A stretch of DNA of 64,000 nucleotides from Escherichia phage vB_EcoM_G17 (MK327931.1); one strand, 5' to 3'; positions 17,956 through 60,312 are shown, counted from the first letter of the stretch. Program-made: numbers and translations. Notes: a model not told the origin generated them from the sequence alone.

Positions 17956-18774
17956 TTAATTAGTTCGAGTATTATATTCGTACTCAAATGTATATACTAA
18001 ATCTTTATCACAGTTAGGGTTACTTGCATCTAAAATGTCACTATTAGTAATCATCCATTCAATGTAATTCAATGGAACTGTACTCATTGGCTCACCTTTG
18101 TGTTTACCAAATGGCATGAATTGATAACGCATTGGTGTGTTGCAGAAAGTTACAATTTGCTCACCAATATCACCATTAGGTTCGATATGTCCACGTTCGA
18201 TTGCAATTTCAACTAATTTGATTAGAACCTGATAACACATAAACACATCGTCTTTTGCTGCGTGTGCATTAACAGGTCGATGAACATCACGATAACATCC
18301 AAACTTATACCACAAATAACTTAGAGTTAAGTTTTTAAATTCAATATCTTCTGCGAACATTTTCTTAGCAAGACGAAGGGTACAAATCCATTTATTTTCA
18401 TCAAGTAAGTACTGTGAAATTGAGTTACGATATTTATATTCGTTATCTACCATCATTCTACGGTCAAATTGTACATTATGACCAACAAAATACTTACGGC
18501 ATCCCATAAGTGCATCAATGTTATCTAAATCATCTTTATACCCAACACAATTAGCTACATCCTCAGTACTGATAAAGTGCACAGCAGATGCCTCTGGTGG
18601 AATATCTTTCAAGGGTTTGTATCTCAATGTATAGTTATCAATAGTATCAATGTTTTCATGTGAAGTATGTGGATACGAGATACTAAATTCAATAATATCA
18701 TCTTCACTCTCAACCCCAGTAGTTTCAGTATCTAGAACTGCTACATTTGATAAAAACTCATTTAATTTTGTCAT
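17956..18774 (-). CDS. DnaQ-like 3'-5' exonuclease (DEDDh) with C-terminal DUF3820-like extension
   Basis: Exo I VLDTETTG, Exo II FVGHNVQFD, Exo III HAAKDD; C-terminal ...MPFGKHKGEPMSTVPLNYIEWM... resembles the DUF3820 motif. Functional analogue of T4 DexA. Confidence 0.7.
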   Translation of the reverse strand: MTKLNEFLSNVAVLDTETTGVESEDDIIEFSISYPHTSHENIDTIDNYTLRYKPLKDIPPEASAVHFISTEDVANCVGYKDDLDNIDALMGCRKYFVGHNVQFDRRMMVDNEYKYRNSISQYLLDENKWICTLRLAKKMFAEDIEFKNLTLSYLWYKFGCYRDVHRPVNAHAAKDDVFMCYQVLIKLVEIAIERGHIEPNGDIGEQIVTFCNTPMRYQFMPFGKHKGEPMSTVPLNYIEWMITNSDILDASNPNCDKDLVYTFEYEYNTRTN

Positions 18775-46814: not shown

Positions 46815-46822
46815 TATAAATA
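46815..46822 (+). promoter_or_regulatory. Late promoter TATAAATA
   Basis: Exact TATAAATA 35 nt upstream of the ATG at 46857. Confidence 0.5.
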
Positions 46823-49247: not shown

Positions 49248-51395
49248 TTAGAAAACATCGTCAAGGGTTGCATATTCAACAGTACTGAAACCGTCCTCTT
49301 TAACAACTTTGAGGATTTTTTCAGTCTTAGATAGTAACTCTTCTCTGTGGGAAATAGCATAAACGTTCTTACCACGTACAGCAGCCATATCTTGGAAGAT
49401 AGACCACACACGTAGAACACCACTTGAGTCAAGACCTTGGTCAATCATCTCATCAATGATAAGAATATTAATACTTTGGTATAATGACTCATATGTATCA
49501 CGGAAAGCACAAGATAATGCGATGTTTACCCTTGTACGCTCACCTCTACTAAGCTGTTTATAGTCAAAGTACTGTCCACTCTTCTCAATTTCAACACTCA
49601 AATCATTCAAAAACACAACATTATGCTCAGAACCGCACATATCGATATAGTACTGAAGTCGTGTATTCAAATATGATATATTTTGCTCAATAATACGTTT
49701 ACGGACATAAGAATCCTTGTTTAAAAGTAATTTAACCAAGAAATCTTGGTGATTTGACATTTTATCAAGATTATTATAGTCGCTATAATCAATTGGTACT
49801 AAAGAATCAGTCTTCAGGGTATTAATTTGGCTAATAAATGTGTTAGTAGTCTTCAATTCACGATCTAATTGCTGTGATAATGAATTTACAGTCATTTCTA
49901 ACTCTTTAACTTCATATTTGTTTAATGTATCTGGAACTTCCATTAGTTCATATGAGTTAAGTTCATCATATGATGACATAAGTTCATTTGCATAGATGTT
50001 TATTTGTTCTTCTTCACTCTTTCTGACCAATTCTTGAAGCTTATGTTCATGCATTTGTGCTTCTGAAAGTGTATTATAATATGTCACAGGCTTAGGTGGC
50101 ATATCAAAAATCTCAATACTATCAATTTCTTGAAGTAATGTTTCAATTTCAGAAGAAGAACTATCAATTTTAGCTTGAAGATCATTAATAGTACTTTGGA
50201 TTTTGTCTTTAATTGAAGAAGTATGTTCGTTATGTTCCAATTCAGACATACAAAGTGGACATTTGCTGTTTTCAACTGTTGATAATTTGTCAATTTCAGC
50301 ATTAATTGAACATTCATATCCTTTTAAAGCTATTTTTAGTGAGTTTAGTTTTTGTTCTTTGAAACGTTTTTGGTTATTATTCTCTTTTAGAATACCCTCT
50401 AACTGTTTCCATATCTCCAACTCATTATGATTTTCCAATTCTGCACTAATATCAATAGTTTTTAGCTTATCAATGCTTAGATTTAATGCTCTTTTAGATC
50501 TTTCAAGTTCACGGTCATATGCATCAAATTTTAAAGCCAACTCTTGTACACGGCGTTCGATTTCACCACGCTTTGCGTTATGAATAAGAGCTTTCTCTTT
50601 TATGTCCGCAGCTTCATAGAGGTCATTAAAGTCTAAAGTTTTATATATATTCAACTCTTCATTTAACTTATATACTCTATTATTTTTATCAATTTCAAAC
50701 TGGTTTGCCTGTTCTTGTAGTGCCTCAATACTTTTTTGAATACGTTCATTACTTGCAGCTACAGTTTCATTTTTGAACTTTTCTTGTTCGGCTAAACGTT
50801 TAGTATCCTTATACATCTCCTTTAGCATTTCAGCTTTTTCCGTCAACTGTGTTATTCCAAGAAGTTCTTCTATCATATCACGTTGTTTTTGTGTGGATAA
50901 AGCTAAGAAAGGTTCAACGTTAGCATTCAGTACTACAATATGTTCAAATAATAATTGAGATATACCAAGAATTTCATTCAAATCTTCTTGTGTGTCTTTC
51001 TTTTCTCCCCTTGATTCATCTTCAATTTTATTATCTTTCCCTAAAGTAACAAAATTGAAATACGTGGGACTTCTCCCACGTTCAACCAGATATTGTACAC
51101 CATCTTTTTCAAACTCTACAACTACTTCACAATTTTTTCCATTAGTTTTATTGACTAGGTTAGGAATTTTAATATCGTTACCAATACTTTTACCAAATAA
51201 TCCAAAAACTAATCCTTGAATAATAGCACTTTTCCCTACACCATTTCGACGTCCGGTACTGTCACCACCTTCAATAACTGCATCATTATTTTGACCCAGT
51301 ACTAATGAAATGTCGGAACCATTCAAGTCAATTGATTGTGGTGCATTACCAAATGAAAAGAAGTTCCTCATAGATATACGTGTAATGTTTAGCAT
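49248..51395 (-). CDS. gp46: Recombination endonuclease subunit gp46 (Rad50/SbcC-like ATPase)
   Basis: 715 aa. N-terminal Walker A (GVGKS), long coiled-coil, zinc-hook-like CPLCMSE, C-terminal signature/Walker B (...ILIIDEMIDQGLD...). Confidence 0.85.
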   Translation of the reverse strand: MLNITRISMRNFFSFGNAPQSIDLNGSDISLVLGQNNDAVIEGGDSTGRRNGVGKSAIIQGLVFGLFGKSIGNDIKIPNLVNKTNGKNCEVVVEFEKDGVQYLVERGRSPTYFNFVTLGKDNKIEDESRGEKKDTQEDLNEILGISQLLFEHIVVLNANVEPFLALSTQKQRDMIEELLGITQLTEKAEMLKEMYKDTKRLAEQEKFKNETVAASNERIQKSIEALQEQANQFEIDKNNRVYKLNEELNIYKTLDFNDLYEAADIKEKALIHNAKRGEIERRVQELALKFDAYDRELERSKRALNLSIDKLKTIDISAELENHNELEIWKQLEGILKENNNQKRFKEQKLNSLKIALKGYECSINAEIDKLSTVENSKCPLCMSELEHNEHTSSIKDKIQSTINDLQAKIDSSSSEIETLLQEIDSIEIFDMPPKPVTYYNTLSEAQMHEHKLQELVRKSEEEQINIYANELMSSYDELNSYELMEVPDTLNKYEVKELEMTVNSLSQQLDRELKTTNTFISQINTLKTDSLVPIDYSDYNNLDKMSNHQDFLVKLLLNKDSYVRKRIIEQNISYLNTRLQYYIDMCGSEHNVVFLNDLSVEIEKSGQYFDYKQLSRGERTRVNIALSCAFRDTYESLYQSINILIIDEMIDQGLDSSGVLRVWSIFQDMAAVRGKNVYAISHREELLSKTEKILKVVKEDGFSTVEYATLDDVF

Positions 51396-51403
51396 ATAGT
51401 CCC

Positions 51404-52435
51404 TTATAACGATCTGTAAATTTGGATTAGAAGATTTTTATCAAACATTGGTGAATCAATTTCCATAATTTGCTGCAAAACTATCTCATCAACTGATTCA
51501 GTACTTTCAAAACTAACACCATCTTCGATTAATTCTGAAATACTTTGCTTGCTTGTCACAACATTAAACTCTCTAATGTTATAAAGTTTAGTAAATGTAT
51601 CACGAATAAAACTAATCTCATCAGTTGTTATTGATATATCAACTTGAACTTTTGATATTGTGTTATCTTGTAGATAATAGCTTGGATCAGTCAACAATTC
51701 AGAAAGTGTGAATGTTCTATATTTTGGTGCATTATCCCATGACTTGAAAATAGGTTCTTTGCCATGTTCAAGAATCATCACACCTCTTGCATCATCCCAT
51801 GTATCGGAAAAATTATGTGGAAAACAATTACCAGTATAAACTACACGAGTTCCTTTTGAAGTTGTTTTTGACTGTCGTTTATGAAAATGTCCACTAAAAA
51901 CATACTCACATCCACCAAAAGAACCTTCTGTTTCTTTTCCATGATCAGGCATTTCTACCATCTTGTTAAGCAAGTAACCTGGTAACTCTAAGTGACCAAA
52001 AACATACTTACTTTTTAGTTGAGGTAACAACTTATATTCATCTTCAATCATAAATGGAATGAAAGTACAATCATCAAAGGTTGTAATTTCATTAATGAAT
52101 TCTATATTTTCATAAACTTGAGCCATATTGATACTTGTTATATCACGTTTGTTTTTATGATACATATCATGGTTGCCGACTAAAAAATATACTTTTTCAA
52201 AATTATCATTTAATAATTGAAGAATTTGTAAACCATAGTTTAGTGTTTGAATATTGATATTACTTCTATTATGAAAATAATCTCCCATAAAAACACAAAC
52301 TTTGATATTATTTTTTTTAGCTACATCAATCATGAATTTAATGAAGTTTAAACAATCTTCATTGTGTTGCTTGCTGTTATTCTTTAAACCTAAGTGAATA
52401 TCAGTGAATGTAATTGCTTTATCAAACAGAGCCAT
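51404..52435 (-). CDS. gp47: Recombination endonuclease subunit gp47 (Mre11/SbcD-like nuclease)
   Basis: ORF-track start is TTG; ATG at 52435 (MALFDKAITFTDIHLG) has an AAGGA SD. Phosphoesterase motifs DIHLG, GDYFH, GNHD, GHFH. Confidence 0.85.
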   Translation of the reverse strand: MALFDKAITFTDIHLGLKNNSKQHNEDCLNFIKFMIDVAKKNNIKVCVFMGDYFHNRSNINIQTLNYGLQILQLLNDNFEKVYFLVGNHDMYHKNKRDITSINMAQVYENIEFINEITTFDDCTFIPFMIEDEYKLLPQLKSKYVFGHLELPGYLLNKMVEMPDHGKETEGSFGGCEYVFSGHFHKRQSKTTSKGTRVVYTGNCFPHNFSDTWDDARGVMILEHGKEPIFKSWDNAPKYRTFTLSELLTDPSYYLQDNTISKVQVDISITTDEISFIRDTFTKLYNIREFNVVTSKQSISELIEDGVSFESTESVDEIVLQQIMEIDSPMFDKNLLIQIYRSL

Positions 52436-53349: not shown

Positions 53350-53357
53350 TATAAATA
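53350..53357 (+). promoter_or_regulatory. Late promoter TATAAATA for the baseplate operon
   Basis: Exact TATAAATA 36 nt upstream of the ATG at 53393; GGAGA SD. Confidence 0.55.
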
Positions 53358-53392: not shown

Positions 53393-54124
53393 ATGATTGA
53401 TCGTAGAATTCGATTACGACCTAAAGCCGCAGGTGCTAACTATGTATATGGTGATTTCGGGGATAGCTCCGAACCAACACTACTTTCGTTTCTGCGTCCA
53501 ACTAATGGGTTGGTTTGGACTGTAACACCAACAATTACTGAACAAAGGTCAATTCAGTATGAAACACAGTCTCCTATACATACCAACAGTAACTATAACA
53601 ACTATAAGAACACTACTAATACAGTTTTCACTATTCAGGGTGAATTTTATGCAAATACAGCAGCAGAAGCTATGTATGCGTTGGCATGTGTTCATTTTAT
53701 ACGTTCTGTTTCATTGATGGATTTTGGTAGACAAGCTGCTTCGGCTAATAACCCCGAACTCGCAATTGCGGGTGCACCACCACCAATCTTACTTCTAAGT
53801 GGATATGGTCGTTATACATATAATGATATTCCTGTTATTTTAAAATCTTATAATTTTACTTACCCAAATGATGTTTCTTATATTCAAGTTCCATTGAATA
53901 GTAGCGATAGTACTTTTAATTTATCCGACATGGATAGTAGAAAATTCTTCGAACAACTTAGAAGTACTGGATATATGAACCCACAAGATGAAGTTTGGGT
54001 TCCACAAAAAATCTCAGTTATGTTACAACTTGAAGAACAACCAACATCGGATTATATGACTAAAACGTTCAACCTCAATGCATTCAAACGTGGTGAACTA
54101 TTACGTAAAGGAGGATTCATTTAA
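53393..54124 (+). CDS. Putative baseplate/tail structural protein (243 aa)
   Basis: ORF-track start at 53303 would include the promoter; ATG at 53393 has a proper SD. First gene of the baseplate operon. Confidence 0.45.
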   Translation: MIDRRIRLRPKAAGANYVYGDFGDSSEPTLLSFLRPTNGLVWTVTPTITEQRSIQYETQSPIHTNSNYNNYKNTTNTVFTIQGEFYANTAAEAMYALACVHFIRSVSLMDFGRQAASANNPELAIAGAPPPILLLSGYGRYTYNDIPVILKSYNFTYPNDVSYIQVPLNSSDSTFNLSDMDSRKFFEQLRSTGYMNPQDEVWVPQKISVMLQLEEQPTSDYMTKTFNLNAFKRGELLRKGGFI

Positions 54125-56712: not shown

Positions 56713-59376
56713 ATGGCAGATACAAGTAAAAAGTATGCACAACAGCAGTTGGGTCGTTTTGACCCATCTTATCCGCAGTTAGCAACTGTTATGGATAACA
56801 GAGATCCAACTAAATCAGGAAAACTGAAAGTTTGGATACAAGGTTCTCAAAGTGATAAAAACTCAAAAGAATCATGGATAGAAGCATCTTACATGTCTCC
56901 TTTTGCTGGTAAAACACCAGGTATTCCAAGTGCTGATGCATATGGTCAATATCCAAAAGGATACGGTTTTTGGGCAGTACCACCAGACGTAGGGTGTACA
57001 GTTGTTGTAATTTTTGCACAAGCCCGTACATTCCAAGCATATTGGATTGGTTGTGTATATGACCAGCGTATGAATACTATGGTTCCGGGTATGGCAACTG
57101 AAGTAAGTAATTATGGTGGAACTGATATGCCACTTCCTGTTACTGACTATGATCGTAACACTATCACTACCGATATGCAAGACAAATATGCTAACGTTCC
57201 AATCATCGCAGGTCTTAAAAAGCAAAACCTTTTATATGACGAAGAAGCTGGGTTGGCGAATCGTAGTAGTACTCGACAAACCACAAGTACTGTATATGGA
57301 ATGTCATCACCACGTGGAAATAGTTTCATTATTGATGATGGATATACTGAAGAGGAATTAACTGCACCCACATGGGATCAAGACCCAGATGGATATCAAG
57401 ATACGCAATTTAATAACCCAGTAAACGATACCCGTGTTGGTTCTCGTAAAAATGAAGGTGTTGTAATAAAAACACGTAGTGGTGCACAACTTCTTTTATC
57501 AGAAGCAACTGGTGATGTTCTTTTAATTAACCGTGACGGTACTGCACGTATTAAATTCACTGGTGAAGGTGATATTGACATGCATTGTGACAAGAATATC
57601 AATATTCGTGCAGGACAAGATATTAATATTACGGCTGGACGTTCATACAACATTGAAACCGGACAAGATTTCAATGCACGCGTTGGTGCAAATACTAAAT
57701 TAGATCTAATTGGTGCTCTTGATGCAAAAGTTGGTGGACAAGTGGTGGTTAATTCAGGTGCTGACCTTCGTTTAGTTACGGCTGCATCATTACGTATGCA
57801 AAGTGGTAGCAGTACTGATATTACGGCTGGTTCAAATGCTTCTATTTCTGCCGCAACATCTGCAAACCTAATTGGATCATCATCAGCAATTATTAGTGGT
57901 GGTGGTCAAACATTAACAGTTAATAGTGGTGGTAATAGCGGTACTGCTGAATTTACTGCACCAAACTTTAGAACACCATCTGCTGGTCTTAATGAACACA
58001 TTCATGATATCGCTGCATGGGTTAACGCTGAAAATCATGGTAGTTATGTTGAACCACCAAGACAAGGTGGTGGAAGTGGTTCTAGTGAATCACCAGTACA
58101 ACCACAACCAGCAAATGATGTATCACCAGAATTACCCGTAGCACAAGACACTGAAGCTGTTCAGTTTGTTAACTATACATCAGAAACTGAACAAGTTCAA
58201 TCACAAGATTTGATGACATCTGATCCTGGGATGACTGGATATAGTATTACATATGAAGGTTTACATATGTTAATGCCATGTAGCGGTACTATTCGACAAT
58301 ATGGTTACTGGGGGAAAGGTGTTCCAACACAAAGTGGAGGAAAGGCAGACCGTTCAGGTTGGGAAATACAATGTAAAGGTGATGTAGTTGCACCAGATGG
58401 TGGTGTGGTAGTAATTACTAATGGTGCTCTTTTAATACAACATAAGTCTGGATATAAATCTATTTTTTATAATATTCAATCTGATTTATTAAACAAAGAT
58501 GTTGTTCAAAAAGGTCAAGTTGTTGGAAAAGCAAATGGTGTCATACAGTTTGAAATTCGTGTTACATCAGCAAATGTTCTTGGATTCAGTGGTTCTGTTG
58601 ACCCAGGATTATTTTATGCTTCACAAACAGGAACAGGGTCTGATGCGGCGAATAAAACATTAATTGGTGGTCAAGCAACTAATCAATCTGCTCCAAAAGC
58701 AGTTGTACAACCTTCAGTTGATAGTGATGAATTGGTAGTTACAACAAAAATCAAAACGATAGGTACTGGATATTCTCAACGTGGTTCTCGTCATGTGCCT
58801 CGTAGGAGAAGAACACAGAGAAGTGGAGCTTCAACAACTCCGGTGGAGCAACCTACCTATAATATTGGAAATGTTGATAAAACTGCAATCGATTGGAAAG
58901 TTGTTCCAGGTGATGCACAATTTATTTCTGAATTAAAAGAATATGAAGGTACATTACAATACCAACAAGCAAAAGGATATTATCGTAATGGTAAATTCTG
59001 GCGTTATTTGGATAGTCGTGGGTATCCAACTATTGGTTATGGTCACTTGATTATTAGTGGTGAAAACTTTTCAGATGGAATAACTGAACAGCAAGCCAAC
59101 GATATGTTAGTTCGTGATAGTAGTAAAGCTATATATGATGCTAAATCAATTTATGCTTCATATAACATGAAAACACCTTATTTGGCTCAACAAGTACTAT
59201 GCCAAATGGTATTCCAGATGGGTAAAGGTGGGGTACTTAAATTTAAAACTATGTTGTCTGAATTAGCTAAAGGTAATTATAAACAAGCTGCTGCTCAAAT
59301 ACGTAATTCAGCTTGGTATCGCCAAACTACTCGCCGTGCTGAGTTAATGGCTCGTCGTTTAGAGGCATGTCAATAA
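56713..59376 (+). CDS. gp5: Baseplate central spike / tail-associated lysozyme (gp5-like): beta-helix repeats plus C-terminal T4-type lysozyme domain
   Basis: 887 aa. Mid-region repeats (INIRAGQDINITAGRSYNIETGQDFNARVGANTKL...); C-terminal 160 aa match T4 lysozyme (GYPTIGYGHL, MVFQMGKGGVLKFK, NSAWYRQTTRRAE) with Glu/Asp/Thr at catalytic positions; AAGGAA SD. Confidence 0.8.
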   Translation: MADTSKKYAQQQLGRFDPSYPQLATVMDNRDPTKSGKLKVWIQGSQSDKNSKESWIEASYMSPFAGKTPGIPSADAYGQYPKGYGFWAVPPDVGCTVVVIFAQARTFQAYWIGCVYDQRMNTMVPGMATEVSNYGGTDMPLPVTDYDRNTITTDMQDKYANVPIIAGLKKQNLLYDEEAGLANRSSTRQTTSTVYGMSSPRGNSFIIDDGYTEEELTAPTWDQDPDGYQDTQFNNPVNDTRVGSRKNEGVVIKTRSGAQLLLSEATGDVLLINRDGTARIKFTGEGDIDMHCDKNINIRAGQDINITAGRSYNIETGQDFNARVGANTKLDLIGALDAKVGGQVVVNSGADLRLVTAASLRMQSGSSTDITAGSNASISAATSANLIGSSSAIISGGGQTLTVNSGGNSGTAEFTAPNFRTPSAGLNEHIHDIAAWVNAENHGSYVEPPRQGGGSGSSESPVQPQPANDVSPELPVAQDTEAVQFVNYTSETEQVQSQDLMTSDPGMTGYSITYEGLHMLMPCSGTIRQYGYWGKGVPTQSGGKADRSGWEIQCKGDVVAPDGGVVVITNGALLIQHKSGYKSIFYNIQSDLLNKDVVQKGQVVGKANGVIQFEIRVTSANVLGFSGSVDPGLFYASQTGTGSDAANKTLIGGQATNQSAPKAVVQPSVDSDELVVTTKIKTIGTGYSQRGSRHVPRRRRTQRSGASTTPVEQPTYNIGNVDKTAIDWKVVPGDAQFISELKEYEGTLQYQQAKGYYRNGKFWRYLDSRGYPTIGYGHLIISGENFSDGITEQQANDMLVRDSSKAIYDAKSIYASYNMKTPYLAQQVLCQMVFQMGKGGVLKFKTMLSELAKGNYKQAAAQIRNSAWYRQTTRRAELMARRLEACQ

Positions 59377-59388
59377 ATATTTTAGTAC

Positions 59389-59396
59389 TATAAATA
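59389..59396 (+). promoter_or_regulatory. Late promoter TATAAATA upstream of the free lysozyme gene
   Basis: Exact TATAAATA 17 nt upstream of the ATG at 59413. Confidence 0.45.
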
Positions 59397-59412
59397 AAAC
59401 GAGGATATCTTT

Positions 59413-59901
59413 ATGAGTAAATGGGAAATTAAAAATACAGATGAGCAATTTTTTAAGGAAATTAAAGAATTTGAAGGAACTATTGCTTATCAGAAAAAAC
59501 TTGGTTATTTTAAAAATGATAAGTTTTGGGTATATAAAGACAGCTTAGGTCTTGATACAATTGGCTATGGTCACCTAGTTTTACCTGGTGAAAATTTCAA
59601 GAATGGTTTAACAGAAGCACAAGCTGACCAACTTCTTCTTAAAGATGCTCAAACTGCGTACAATGATGCAAAATCAATTTATGAACAATTTGGTATGACC
59701 GCACCTATACAGGTTCAACGTGTATTATGGTTGATGGTATTCCAGATGGGCAAAACCAAAGTTTTAAAATTTAAAAAAGCAATGACCGCATTAGGTAAGG
59801 CTGATTATAAAACTGCTGGTAAGGAATTGCGTGATAGTACATGGTATAAACAAACCACTTCAAGAGCGGAAAAGATGGCACGTATTGTTGAATCCGTATA
59901 A
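59413..59901 (+). CDS. e: T4-type lysozyme (endolysin, GH24; gene e-like)
   Basis: 162 aa; EFEGTIAYQKKLGY...DSLGLDTIGYGHL...LMVFQMGKTKVLKFK...DSTWYKQTTSRAEKMA closely parallels T4 lysozyme; paralog of the spike C-terminal domain. Confidence 0.9.
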   Translation: MSKWEIKNTDEQFFKEIKEFEGTIAYQKKLGYFKNDKFWVYKDSLGLDTIGYGHLVLPGENFKNGLTEAQADQLLLKDAQTAYNDAKSIYEQFGMTAPIQVQRVLWLMVFQMGKTKVLKFKKAMTALGKADYKTAGKELRDSTWYKQTTSRAEKMARIVESV

Positions 59902-59916
59902 TAAAGGAAATAGTCA

Positions 59917-60312
59917 ATGGCAGTTGTTTTTAAAGGTTTTTCTACCCCAGTAGTGGGTAGAACTGAAACATTGTATGATAGTGAATTGGTTCGCCAAGAT
60001 TTAATGAATCATTTCAATACAAAAAAAGGCGAAAGAGCATTTGATGCTGACTATGGTTTTATTGCATGGGATTTGCTGTTTGAATTGGAAGGTTATAATA
60101 CTATCAACCTTTTGGAAGCAGATGCCCGTAGAATAATTAGCTTAGATCCACGCTTAAATCTTAAGAAATTGCAAATTTCAAGAATAGAATATGGATACCA
60201 AATGAATATTGTATTACAGTACGTAGTATTGGATACATTAGAAGAACTTACTATTGTATTCGATGCAAGAAGTAATAACAGAATGGCAACATATTCAGTA
60301 TCGTCTTTATAA
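59917..60312 (+). CDS. gp25: Baseplate wedge protein gp25-like
   Basis: 131 aa; ...KGERAFDADYGFIAWDLLFE... parallels T4 gp25 ...KGSRPFDPEFGCDLSDQLFE... as recalled; AAAGGAAA SD. Confidence 0.7.
   Translation: MAVVFKGFSTPVVGRTETLYDSELVRQDLMNHFNTKKGERAFDADYGFIAWDLLFELEGYNTINLLEADARRIISLDPRLNLKKLQISRIEYGYQMNIVLQYVVLDTLEELTIVFDARSNNRMATYSVSSL

Follow-up and report, generated by a model that had tools for sequence, protein, structure and literature searches.

In the spike protein gp5 of phage T4, the lysozyme is central, at residues 190–326 of the 584-amino-acid (aa) chain (1k28_A). A different layout was described in 2013 for phage RaK2, in a paper that also reported three related lysozymes: the domain composition of its 886-aa gp078 was called "very unusual" compared with T4 gp5, with a beta-helix flanked by two unassigned regions and a lysozyme at the C-terminus. 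The 2017 paper on phage CBB (PMC5259590) described the same three adjacent genes that concern us here, and their difference from gp5. An unusual spike layout and multiple related lysozymes are already known from these two studies. According to the P2 Apex paper, a further point of reference, HxH directly after the beta-helix identifies the Fe-binding Apex domain that P2 gpV-type spikes possess, and spikes without HxH, for example T4 gp5, have a separate PAAR tip protein. Here we analyse such a locus in a 64,000-nucleotide (nt) stretch of Escherichia phage vB_EcoM_G17 (MK327931.1), the whole of which is called the window and gives the coordinates used below unless another record is named. At 56713–59901, on the plus strand, it encodes an 887-aa spike and an adjacent 162-aa lysozyme, lys162, which a preliminary description of the sequence had seen as a domain-permuted relative of gp5 next to a recently duplicated or captured paralog. 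Our overall explanation, which we consider probable, is that the locus encodes the central, membrane-piercing, gpV-type spike of a RaK2-like jumbo myovirus with C-terminal cargo, together with an old, late, free muramidase paralog.

Architecture of the spike

The 3.2-kb region is 100% identical to that of Escherichia phage Sharanji (OR545507.1; Asteriusvirus, 350 kb), whose gene numbers are used here, and 94–99% identical to those of PBECO4, 121Q, phAPEC6, and other jumbo coliphages. The spike was aligned with 86 full-length homologs of 869–984 aa, down to 36% identity, giving 87 sequences in all, to which the counts of spikes below refer. The gene, supported by its open reading frame (ORF), Pfam matches, and detection of orthologs in virions by mass spectrometry (MS), and the parts of its product are as follows.

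56713–59376, plus strand: central baseplate spike gene, 887 aa, Sharanji_gp372.
56779–57060, plus strand: OB-fold domain of gp5/gpV/VgrG type, aa 23–116 (Pfam PF04717, Phage_base_V, E = 8e-7).
57061–57462, plus strand: conserved segment without family or fold match, aa 117–250 (alignment).
57463–57972, plus strand: triple-stranded beta-helix region, about aa 251–420 (Pfam DUF2345, VgrG matches, model).
57973–58050, plus strand: apex-like segment, aa 421–446, with HxH as H429-I-H431 at nt 57997–58005 (family conservation).
58051–58242, plus strand: linker 1, aa 447–510, a Gly/Ser/Pro/Gln-rich part followed by a short strand and helix (low-confidence model).
58243–58677, plus strand: degenerate LytM (M23-fold) domain, aa 511–655 (predicted fold; ligand positions substituted).
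58678–58893, plus strand: linker 2, aa 656–727, a conserved motif followed by a hypervariable tract at aa 701–720.
58894–59373, plus strand: C-terminal GH24 (T4-type) lysozyme domain, aa 728–887 (fold; catalytic residues E745, D767, and T773).

The OB-fold aligns, over spike residues 19–117, to residues 364–449 of a VgrG OB domain (9jg8), and would dock the spike onto the hub and tube. It is followed by the best conserved part of the whole protein, aa 117–250, which has block identities of 0.6–0.8 and many invariant residues and sits where T4 gp5 holds its lysozyme. This segment has no Pfam or PDB match, its predicted local distance difference test (pLDDT) score in the monomer model is 28–50, and it may fold only in the trimer. 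The beta-helix contains DUF2345 (PF10106) at aa 278–329, matches VgrG beta-helices, and is modeled as regular short strands with pLDDT of 70–84. After it comes the HxH motif: H429 and H431 are invariant (87/87), position 433 is His in 70/87, and H442 is kept in 81/87. Because this invariant HxH stands directly after the beta-helix, the N-terminal 446 residues correspond to a gpV-type spike. A further 456 residues follow H431, the protein being a P2 gpV-type spike with a C-terminal extension of ~450 residues. A sequence search of spike aa 1–700 against the PDB gave weak VgrG hits only. An alignment of 4uhv onto "HHHH" was a His-tag artefact and was ignored, and the full-length monomer model, with a predicted template modeling score (pTM) of 0.36, carries no weight for inter-domain geometry.

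The layout given in the preliminary description is borne out. The ORF at 56713–59376 does encode 887 aa with a C-terminal T4-type lysozyme, whose domain starts at nt 58894 (about 58890 had been given), and this domain (aa 728–887) lies after the beta-helix (aa 251–420), whereas in T4 gp5, as had been stated, it lies between the N-terminal domain and the beta-helix, at residues 190–326 of 584. What does not stand is the interpretation of this order as a permuted gp5. Descent of the spike from a T4 gp5-like ancestor by true circular permutation or rearrangement, with the same lysozyme fusion event behind both proteins, would account for the same three kinds of module (OB-fold, GH24 lysozyme, beta-helix) in each, yet we find it scarcely credible. 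The HxH apex, which marks a gpV-type spike and is present here in 87/87, is missing in gp5 according to the P2 Apex paper. The gp5 lysozyme is 47% identical to T4 e and only 35% identical to the Sharanji spike domain, and the latter belongs to a subfamily different from gp5 and e, sharing an insertion of ~13 residues and a deletion with its own subfamily and not with T4. In addition, other spikes of the lineage bear a C-terminal GH19 domain instead: among distant spikes that have only the OB-fold and beta-helix in common with this one, C-terminal GH24 was found in P0095 and P0115, and GH19 in P0110, P0099, and P0107. Spikes of this lineage commonly have a wall hydrolase placed beyond the needle tip. 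On this sequence evidence, the lysozyme was fused independently, as C-terminal cargo, to a spike of gpV type; in function the arrangement is analogous to that of evolved VgrGs, and it is no rearrangement of gp5.

A degenerate LytM domain and a conserved linker

The preliminary description overlooked a LytM domain located between the apex and the lysozyme. Residues 511–655 are predicted with confidence (pLDDT 85–96) as a beta-rich domain with the LytM beta-sandwich fold, and the best structural matches are EnvC, NlpD, DipM, and SpoIIQ, at sequence identities of 13–22%. The complete M23 ligand set (HxxxD, HxH) is found in 0/87 spike sequences, and most of its positions are substituted throughout: the ligand-equivalent positions 547, 551, 587, 611, and 613 hold R, E/I, N/D/G, I/F/L, and F, respectively. 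In this spike, all of the Zn and catalytic ligands are lost, and the domain is therefore a degenerate, non-peptidase LytM domain.

EnvC, NlpD, DipM, and SpoIIQ have lost their Zn ligands, as the spike domain has. In the cell, their role is that of scaffolds or of activators of amidases or lytic transglycosylases; the spike domain resembles them in fold. By analogy with EnvC, DipM, and SpoIIQ, the dead domain would most likely bind peptidoglycan, or position or regulate a hydrolase. A bolder form of the analogy, which we regard as improbable, is that the domain is an activator like EnvC, NlpD, and DipM, acting, after the needle tip has brought it into the periplasm, either as an in-cis switch of the lysozyme or by hijacking amidases or lytic transglycosylases of the host, so that the wall would be opened locally, with the Gly-Ser...Pro-Arg-Arg linker as a release or processing site. 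If true, this would mean a phage entry device bearing a regulator of host autolysins.

The linker in question follows the LytM domain. The Arg-rich stretch RHVPRRRRTQR, which had been noticed after the beta-helix in the preliminary description, is present at aa 693–703 (nt 58789–58821). It overlaps a family-wide motif of linker 2, I-G-x-G-Y-S-Q-R-G-S-[RK]-H-V-P-[RK]-[RK], at aa 683–698 (nt 58759–58806), and is therefore part of a conserved element, in which G691 is found in 87/87, S692 in 85/87, P696 in 86/87, and R690 in 79/87. The tract at aa 701–720 is hypervariable, with a block identity of 0.16, and pLDDT is <50 at aa 698–715.

Two paralogous lysozymes

The free-standing lysozyme follows the spike gene after a spacer of 36 nt, with a GAGGA Shine-Dalgarno sequence at 59401–59405 and its ATG at 59413.

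59413–59901, plus strand: lys162, free-standing GH24 lysozyme gene, 162 aa, Sharanji_gp373 (ORF, Pfam).

Its product matches Pfam PF00959 (Phage_lysozyme, 6.5e-9) and has the lysozyme fold, and the catalytic residues E21, D43, and T49 are present in 69/69 orthologs. The spike-borne domain begins at an invariant W728 (nt 58894), matches Phage_lysozyme at aa 765–882, and has, within aa 728–887, a T4-lysozyme fold and the catalytic Glu, Asp, and Thr equivalent to T4 E11, D20, and T26. Across the spike family, the Glu and Asp columns are kept in 86/87 and the Thr column in 61/87, with Asp instead in 19.

Spike aa 728–885 and lys162 aa 4–161 are 53% identical by BLASTP, with 0 gaps and E = 3e-57, a match well beyond chance. 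Overall, the two lysozymes are 49–53% identical, and each is only 30–36% identical to T4 e or to the T4 gp5 lysozyme domain and 32–36% identical to the third lysozyme of the phage. Relative to T4, the spike and free lysozymes have in common an insertion of ~13 residues between the catalytic Glu and Asp and a deletion, which also occur in some enterobacterial and phage lysozymes. They likewise have in common an N-terminal W-x-[IV] extension that the outside group lacks. These comparisons identify the spike domain and lys162 as true paralogs within one GH24 subfamily, much closer to each other than to either T4 enzyme or to the third lysozyme, in agreement with the paralogy proposed in the preliminary description.

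The position equivalent to T4 Thr26 (T773, nt 59029–59031) is occupied by Asp in 19 and by Ser in 4 of 76 crown-group spike domains, and by Thr in 69/69 free lysozymes; the catalytic mechanism of the spike-borne enzyme may thus be relaxed or altered in some lineages. In the metagenomic spike P0086 (L011:400–3153), the most divergent member, the columns of the catalytic Glu and Asp are occupied by Asp and Arg, and its lysozyme domain may be inactive, or the columns may be misaligned.

The third GH24 paralog, Sharanji_gp426, lies outside the window (OR545507.1, 263024–263950; L005:46025–46951, minus strand) and is annotated as "hypothetical". This 308-aa protein combines an N-terminal transmembrane (TM) helix at aa 12–30 and a LysM motif with a lysozyme at the C-terminus. 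Its counterpart in CBB is CBB_187, for which the CBB paper (PMC5259590) suggested the role of a signal-anchor-release (SAR)-type endolysin. We found nothing convincing as a lysis cassette beside gp426.

Age and distribution of the gene pair

The adjacency of the two genes had been taken as a sign of a recent event. A recent tandem duplication, or a recent capture of the neighboring lysozyme gene by the spike, would be consistent with two genes that are adjacent, lie on the same strand, and encode products 53% identical without gaps; we nevertheless judge it very improbable. The order spike, free lysozyme, gp25-like gene is conserved in at least five genera. With a gp6-like gene as the fourth member, it is found in GAP32 (Mimasvirus), in fHe-Yen9-04 (Eneladusvirus), in the unclassified Kaldavass and PHA46, and in XaC1, and the pair is also present, in the same order, in Klebsiella phage Muenster and in the metagenomic lineages P0077, P0078, P0081, and P0085. 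Orthologs are 48–79% identical (mostly 59–79%); Sharanji lys162 is 59–79% identical to its orthologs and 45–54% identical to any spike domain, including 52% to its own, the same-genome pair being no closer than cross-genome pairs. The nucleotide identity between the two lysozyme segments is 60%, with 52% at third codon positions. Given this synteny, the higher identity of orthologs (mostly) than of paralogs, and the 52% at third positions, recent duplication and recent gene conversion are excluded, and the label "recent" has to be dropped. The sequences instead indicate that the split between the paralogs is old.

The spike-borne lysozyme is present in 87/87 family members. The free gene is missing in 6 of the 11 deep lineages examined (P0076, P0079, P0080, P0083, P0084, and P0086); in P0076, P0079, P0080, P0084, and P0086 the spike is followed directly by the gp25-like gene. 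It is a robust result that every family member has the spike fusion, the free copy being facultative. In Muenster (Alcyoneusvirus; L003:4992–5884), two small reverse-strand genes lie between the spike and the free lysozyme, and, with an annotated terminator after the spike, break an otherwise tight operon.

Possible origins of the gene pair

As to direction, capture of a free gene by the spike or copying of the spike domain into a free gene, the evidence is divided and the lysozyme tree is nearly a star. In the following, SP denotes spike domains, FR free lysozymes, A and B the clades, and OUT the outside group. In the 162-column lysozyme alignment, strict-monophyly neighbor-joining (NJ) bootstraps were all <=25%, and group identities and quartets were used instead; between-group identities were all 0.38–0.49. 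The 699-column tree of the spike body was rooted arbitrarily on its most divergent member. This tree first suggested a single late gain of the free gene from the spike, a reading that does not stand in view of the free gene in the clade-B lineages P0081 and P0085 and by conflicting quartets. The free gene occurs in both clades, and therefore either predates the A/B split, with at least three losses, or arose at least twice.

Outside the jumbo phages, the closest relative of lys162 is the endolysin of the T5-like Pantoea phage AAS21 (L008:3001–3498), which is encoded next to a holin and has a full-length identity of 44% to lys162. Its W-x-[IV] N-terminal extension is otherwise found only in the spike and free lysozymes of jumbo phages. 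This likeness and the shared extension suggest gene exchange between jumbo myoviruses and T5-like siphoviruses.

We consider it possible, in a tentative way, that the free gene derives from the spike: an old partial duplication of the spike 3' end would have gained a start codon, a ribosome-binding site, and sometimes a promoter, perhaps more than once. The distribution fits this direction, with the spike-borne domain in 87/87 and the free gene absent from P0076, P0079, P0080, P0083, P0084, and P0086, as does the N-terminal W-x-[IV] extension in both proteins. Two quartets also favor it, namely (crown SP, crown FR | SP-B, OUT), at 0.61 versus 0.35 and top in 78% of bootstraps, and (FR-B, SP-B | FR-A, SP-A), at 0.62 and top in 77% of bootstraps. 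However, the quartet (FR-B, OUT | SP-B, SP-A), at 0.73, conflicts with FR-B as sister to SP-B, and AAS21-type endolysins nest beside the free lysozymes. The strict NJ bootstraps of <=25% and the arbitrary root of the spike tree also count against it.

The opposite direction appears rather doubtful to us. Here, duplication of an ancestral free gene downstream of a gpV-type spike would have given two copies, of which one joined the spike when the stop codon was lost and the other, still free, later disappeared from several lineages. The free gene in clades A and B is compatible with its presence in their common ancestor, and both the C-terminal position of the domain and the hypervariable linker at aa 701–720 fit a read-through fusion. 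Against this, at least three independent losses are needed (P0076; the P0079/P0080/P0083/P0084 clade; P0086), and the clade-A and clade-B free lysozymes are not clearly grouped (0.32 versus 0.62).

It is also conceivable, while unlikely, that the free lysozyme came in horizontally, as an endolysin gene of prophage or T5-like origin inserted in the baseplate operon, and resembles the spike domain only as a member of the same subfamily. The AAS21 endolysin, with its full-length identity of 44%, is placed next to the free lysozymes; proteins of ~150 aa from Enterobacterales are 43–52% identical; and clade-B free lysozymes pair with the outside group in the quartet at 0.73. Yet crown free lysozymes are on average nearer crown spike domains (0.49) than the outside group (0.43), the N-terminal extension in common with the spike domain is missing in the outside group, and lys162 has no compositional anomaly as a sign of horizontal transfer.

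Late-promoter motif

A motif that recurs before genes of the window stands ahead of lys162 and ahead of the baseplate block to which it belongs.

59389–59396, plus strand: TATAAATA, late-promoter-like motif 16 nt before the lys162 ATG (positional enrichment).
53350–53357, plus strand: TATAAATA, motif 35 nt upstream of the first baseplate-block gene, ORF 53393–54124 (positional enrichment).

The copies in the window start at 18431, 29702, 39648, and 40857 on the minus strand and at 46815, 48700, 53350, and 59389 on the plus strand. In raw number, the motif is not enriched in the window (8 found versus 10 expected). Its placement is another matter: 8/8 copies are on the local coding strand and 7/8 lie 16–56 nt upstream of an ATG ORF, the copy at 18431 having no ORF start within 60 nt. 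In a positional test, 7/8 copies fell 10–60 nt upstream of a same-strand ORF that starts with ATG and has >=60 aa, compared with 4.2% of all strand-positions (P ~2e-9). This agrees with the CBB paper (PMC5259590), where a late motif, ATAAATA, is given ahead of structural genes of CBB and GAP32. The sites look like T4-type late promoters, and the late promoter that had been ascribed to lys162 is upheld in this sense. Before lys162, the motif varies by lineage: only Sharanji and Muenster have it intact, PHA46 retains a degraded form, and GAP32, Yen9-04, and Kaldavass lack it. In XaC1 and P0077, the gap between spike and lysozyme is only 10–12 nt, and the free gene is therefore probably co-transcribed with the spike.

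Function of the spike and of the free lysozyme

In the mechanism we propose, the beta-helix trimer would be the needle and the HxH "histidine cage" apex its tip. Sheath contraction would drive the spike across the outer membrane, and the three tethered lysozyme domains would reach the periplasm, where they would cut peptidoglycan locally and let the tube pass. Spike orthologs have been detected in virions by MS, with 7 peptides for phAPEC6 gp241 and 3 peptides for CBB_240 (PMC5259590).

In this phage, a TATAAATA promoter of its own would drive late expression of the free lysozyme; in several relatives, the gene would be transcribed together with that of the spike. The product would most likely be a free late muramidase, endolysin-like, alongside the membrane-anchored LysM-lysozyme. 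The enzyme is catalytically competent and soluble. Its 162-aa ortholog LysUE1, from phage UE-S1, has been purified and lyses EDTA-treated cells (PMC12805682); the cloning primer of LysUE1 is the first 21 nt of the lys162 ORF. No hydrophobic or TM segment and no export signal were found in lys162. The ortholog is not in the phAPEC6 virion list nor in the part of the CBB list covered here (PMC5259590), and lys162 is probably not a stoichiometric part of the virion.

We lean, by a modest preference, toward lys162 as a soluble late muramidase acting from within over a tail-associated role. In the latter case it would be associated with the tail or baseplate, as extra lysozyme cargo or as a spike assembly factor, and not an endolysin. 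Its position between the spike and gp25-like genes is invariant, it is co-transcribed in several lineages, another protein of the phage, the TM-LysM-lysozyme, had been put forward as the endolysin, and the CBB authors list the ortholog as "possibly associated with the baseplate" (PMC5259590). A tail role is nonetheless not what we expect: the protein is missing from the phAPEC6 list and from the covered part of the CBB list while its neighbors were found, it is dispensable in six related lineages, and its close AAS21 relative adjoins a holin.

Several observations weigh against the overall explanation favored here, that of a gpV-type spike with cargo and a late free muramidase. For the spike, gp078 was not detected in the MS of RaK2, and the full-length monomer model, with its pTM of 0.36, is of low confidence at the apex (aa 424–455) and at aa 116–248. 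For the free lysozyme, little can be read from its absence from virions, since both proteomes also lacked the gp25-like protein, which is certainly structural. No holin was found near lys162 within the window, with linkage to one only in the AAS21 relative, and both the fixed place inside the baseplate operon and the separate TM-LysM lysozyme elsewhere would also fit a tail role.

Gene neighborhood and annotation

The plus-strand baseplate block starts with the genes for a 243-aa virion protein, a gp53-like 104-aa protein, and a 749-aa virion protein, and continues with the spike, lys162, the gp25-like gene, and a gp6/J-like gene of 1153 aa.

59917–60312, plus strand: gp25-like baseplate wedge gene, the downstream neighbor (Pfam PF04965; synteny in all related loci).

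Divergent from this block, on the minus strand at ~49248–52427, is an SbcC/SbcD-like pair (AAA_23/SMC_N and Metallophos; Sharanji_gp366/gp367), which is syntenic in nearly all related contigs that reach upstream, down to 36% spike identity.

Both ORFs of the pair, Sharanji_gp372 and Sharanji_gp373, are labeled merely "lysozyme". Annotations of the two genes are inconsistent across GenBank OQ708376.1 and OR545507.1, and in the record of CRJP21 the features under the pair are named "nuclease subunit" and "putative RNA polymerase sigma factor". The Sharanji paper places the spike (WNN14653.1) among lysis proteins. The GenBank annotations of several spike and lys162 genes, and the listing as a lysis protein, are misleading.

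Comparison with known systems

The layout described here is real and ordinary, and the small lysozyme has already been expressed and assayed as LysUE1 (2025). RaK2 gp078/gp073, CBB_240/CBB_239, GAP32 gp234/gp233, phAPEC6 gp241, and 121Q gp587/gp586 are orthologs, 58–99% identical over their full length and in the same gene order. In the literature searched, there was no report of the apex assignment, the degenerate LytM domain, the conserved linker motif, or the patchy distribution of the free copy. The apex, the LytM domain, the linker motif, and the facultative free copy are refinements and not a new kind of system; they could guide the interpretation of RaK2-like baseplates by cryo-electron microscopy.

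Like this phage, T4 has a spike-borne GH24 lysozyme and a free paralogous GH24 lysozyme (gp5 and e), and its spike has an OB-fold and a beta-helix. T4 gp5, however, has its lysozyme inserted between OB-fold and beta-helix, it lacks both HxH and a LytM domain, and the PAAR tip is a separate protein, gp5.4, whereas the lysozyme of this spike comes after the beta-helix. In addition, the T4 genes for gp5 and e are not adjacent, and their lysozymes are of another GH24 subgroup, 30–36% identical to those described here. The order of OB-fold, beta-helix, and HxH predicted for this spike is instead that of P2 gpV and phi92 gp138. While gpV ends ~12 residues after its HxH, this spike has 456 more, with the LytM and lysozyme domains, and it differs from gpV also in the extra conserved segment of ~130 aa between OB-fold and beta-helix.

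Two further systems are comparable in their cargo. In phages of Gram-positive bacteria, gp13 of the podovirus phi29 is a tail-tip protein with a lysozyme and an active M23 endopeptidase. As in this spike, a muramidase is combined with an M23-fold domain; in phi29 gp13 the domain order is opposite and the M23 domain is active. Among evolved VgrGs of the type VI secretion system, VgrG-3 of V. cholerae has a C-terminal peptidoglycan hydrolase. VgrGs carry a fused gp27-like module of ~360 aa before the OB-fold, whereas in this phage the hub has a gene of its own and the OB-fold of the spike begins at residue 23. Homology to VgrG can be detected in the OB-fold and beta-helix, and in evolved VgrGs, as here, the enzymatic cargo comes after the beta-helix of the spike.

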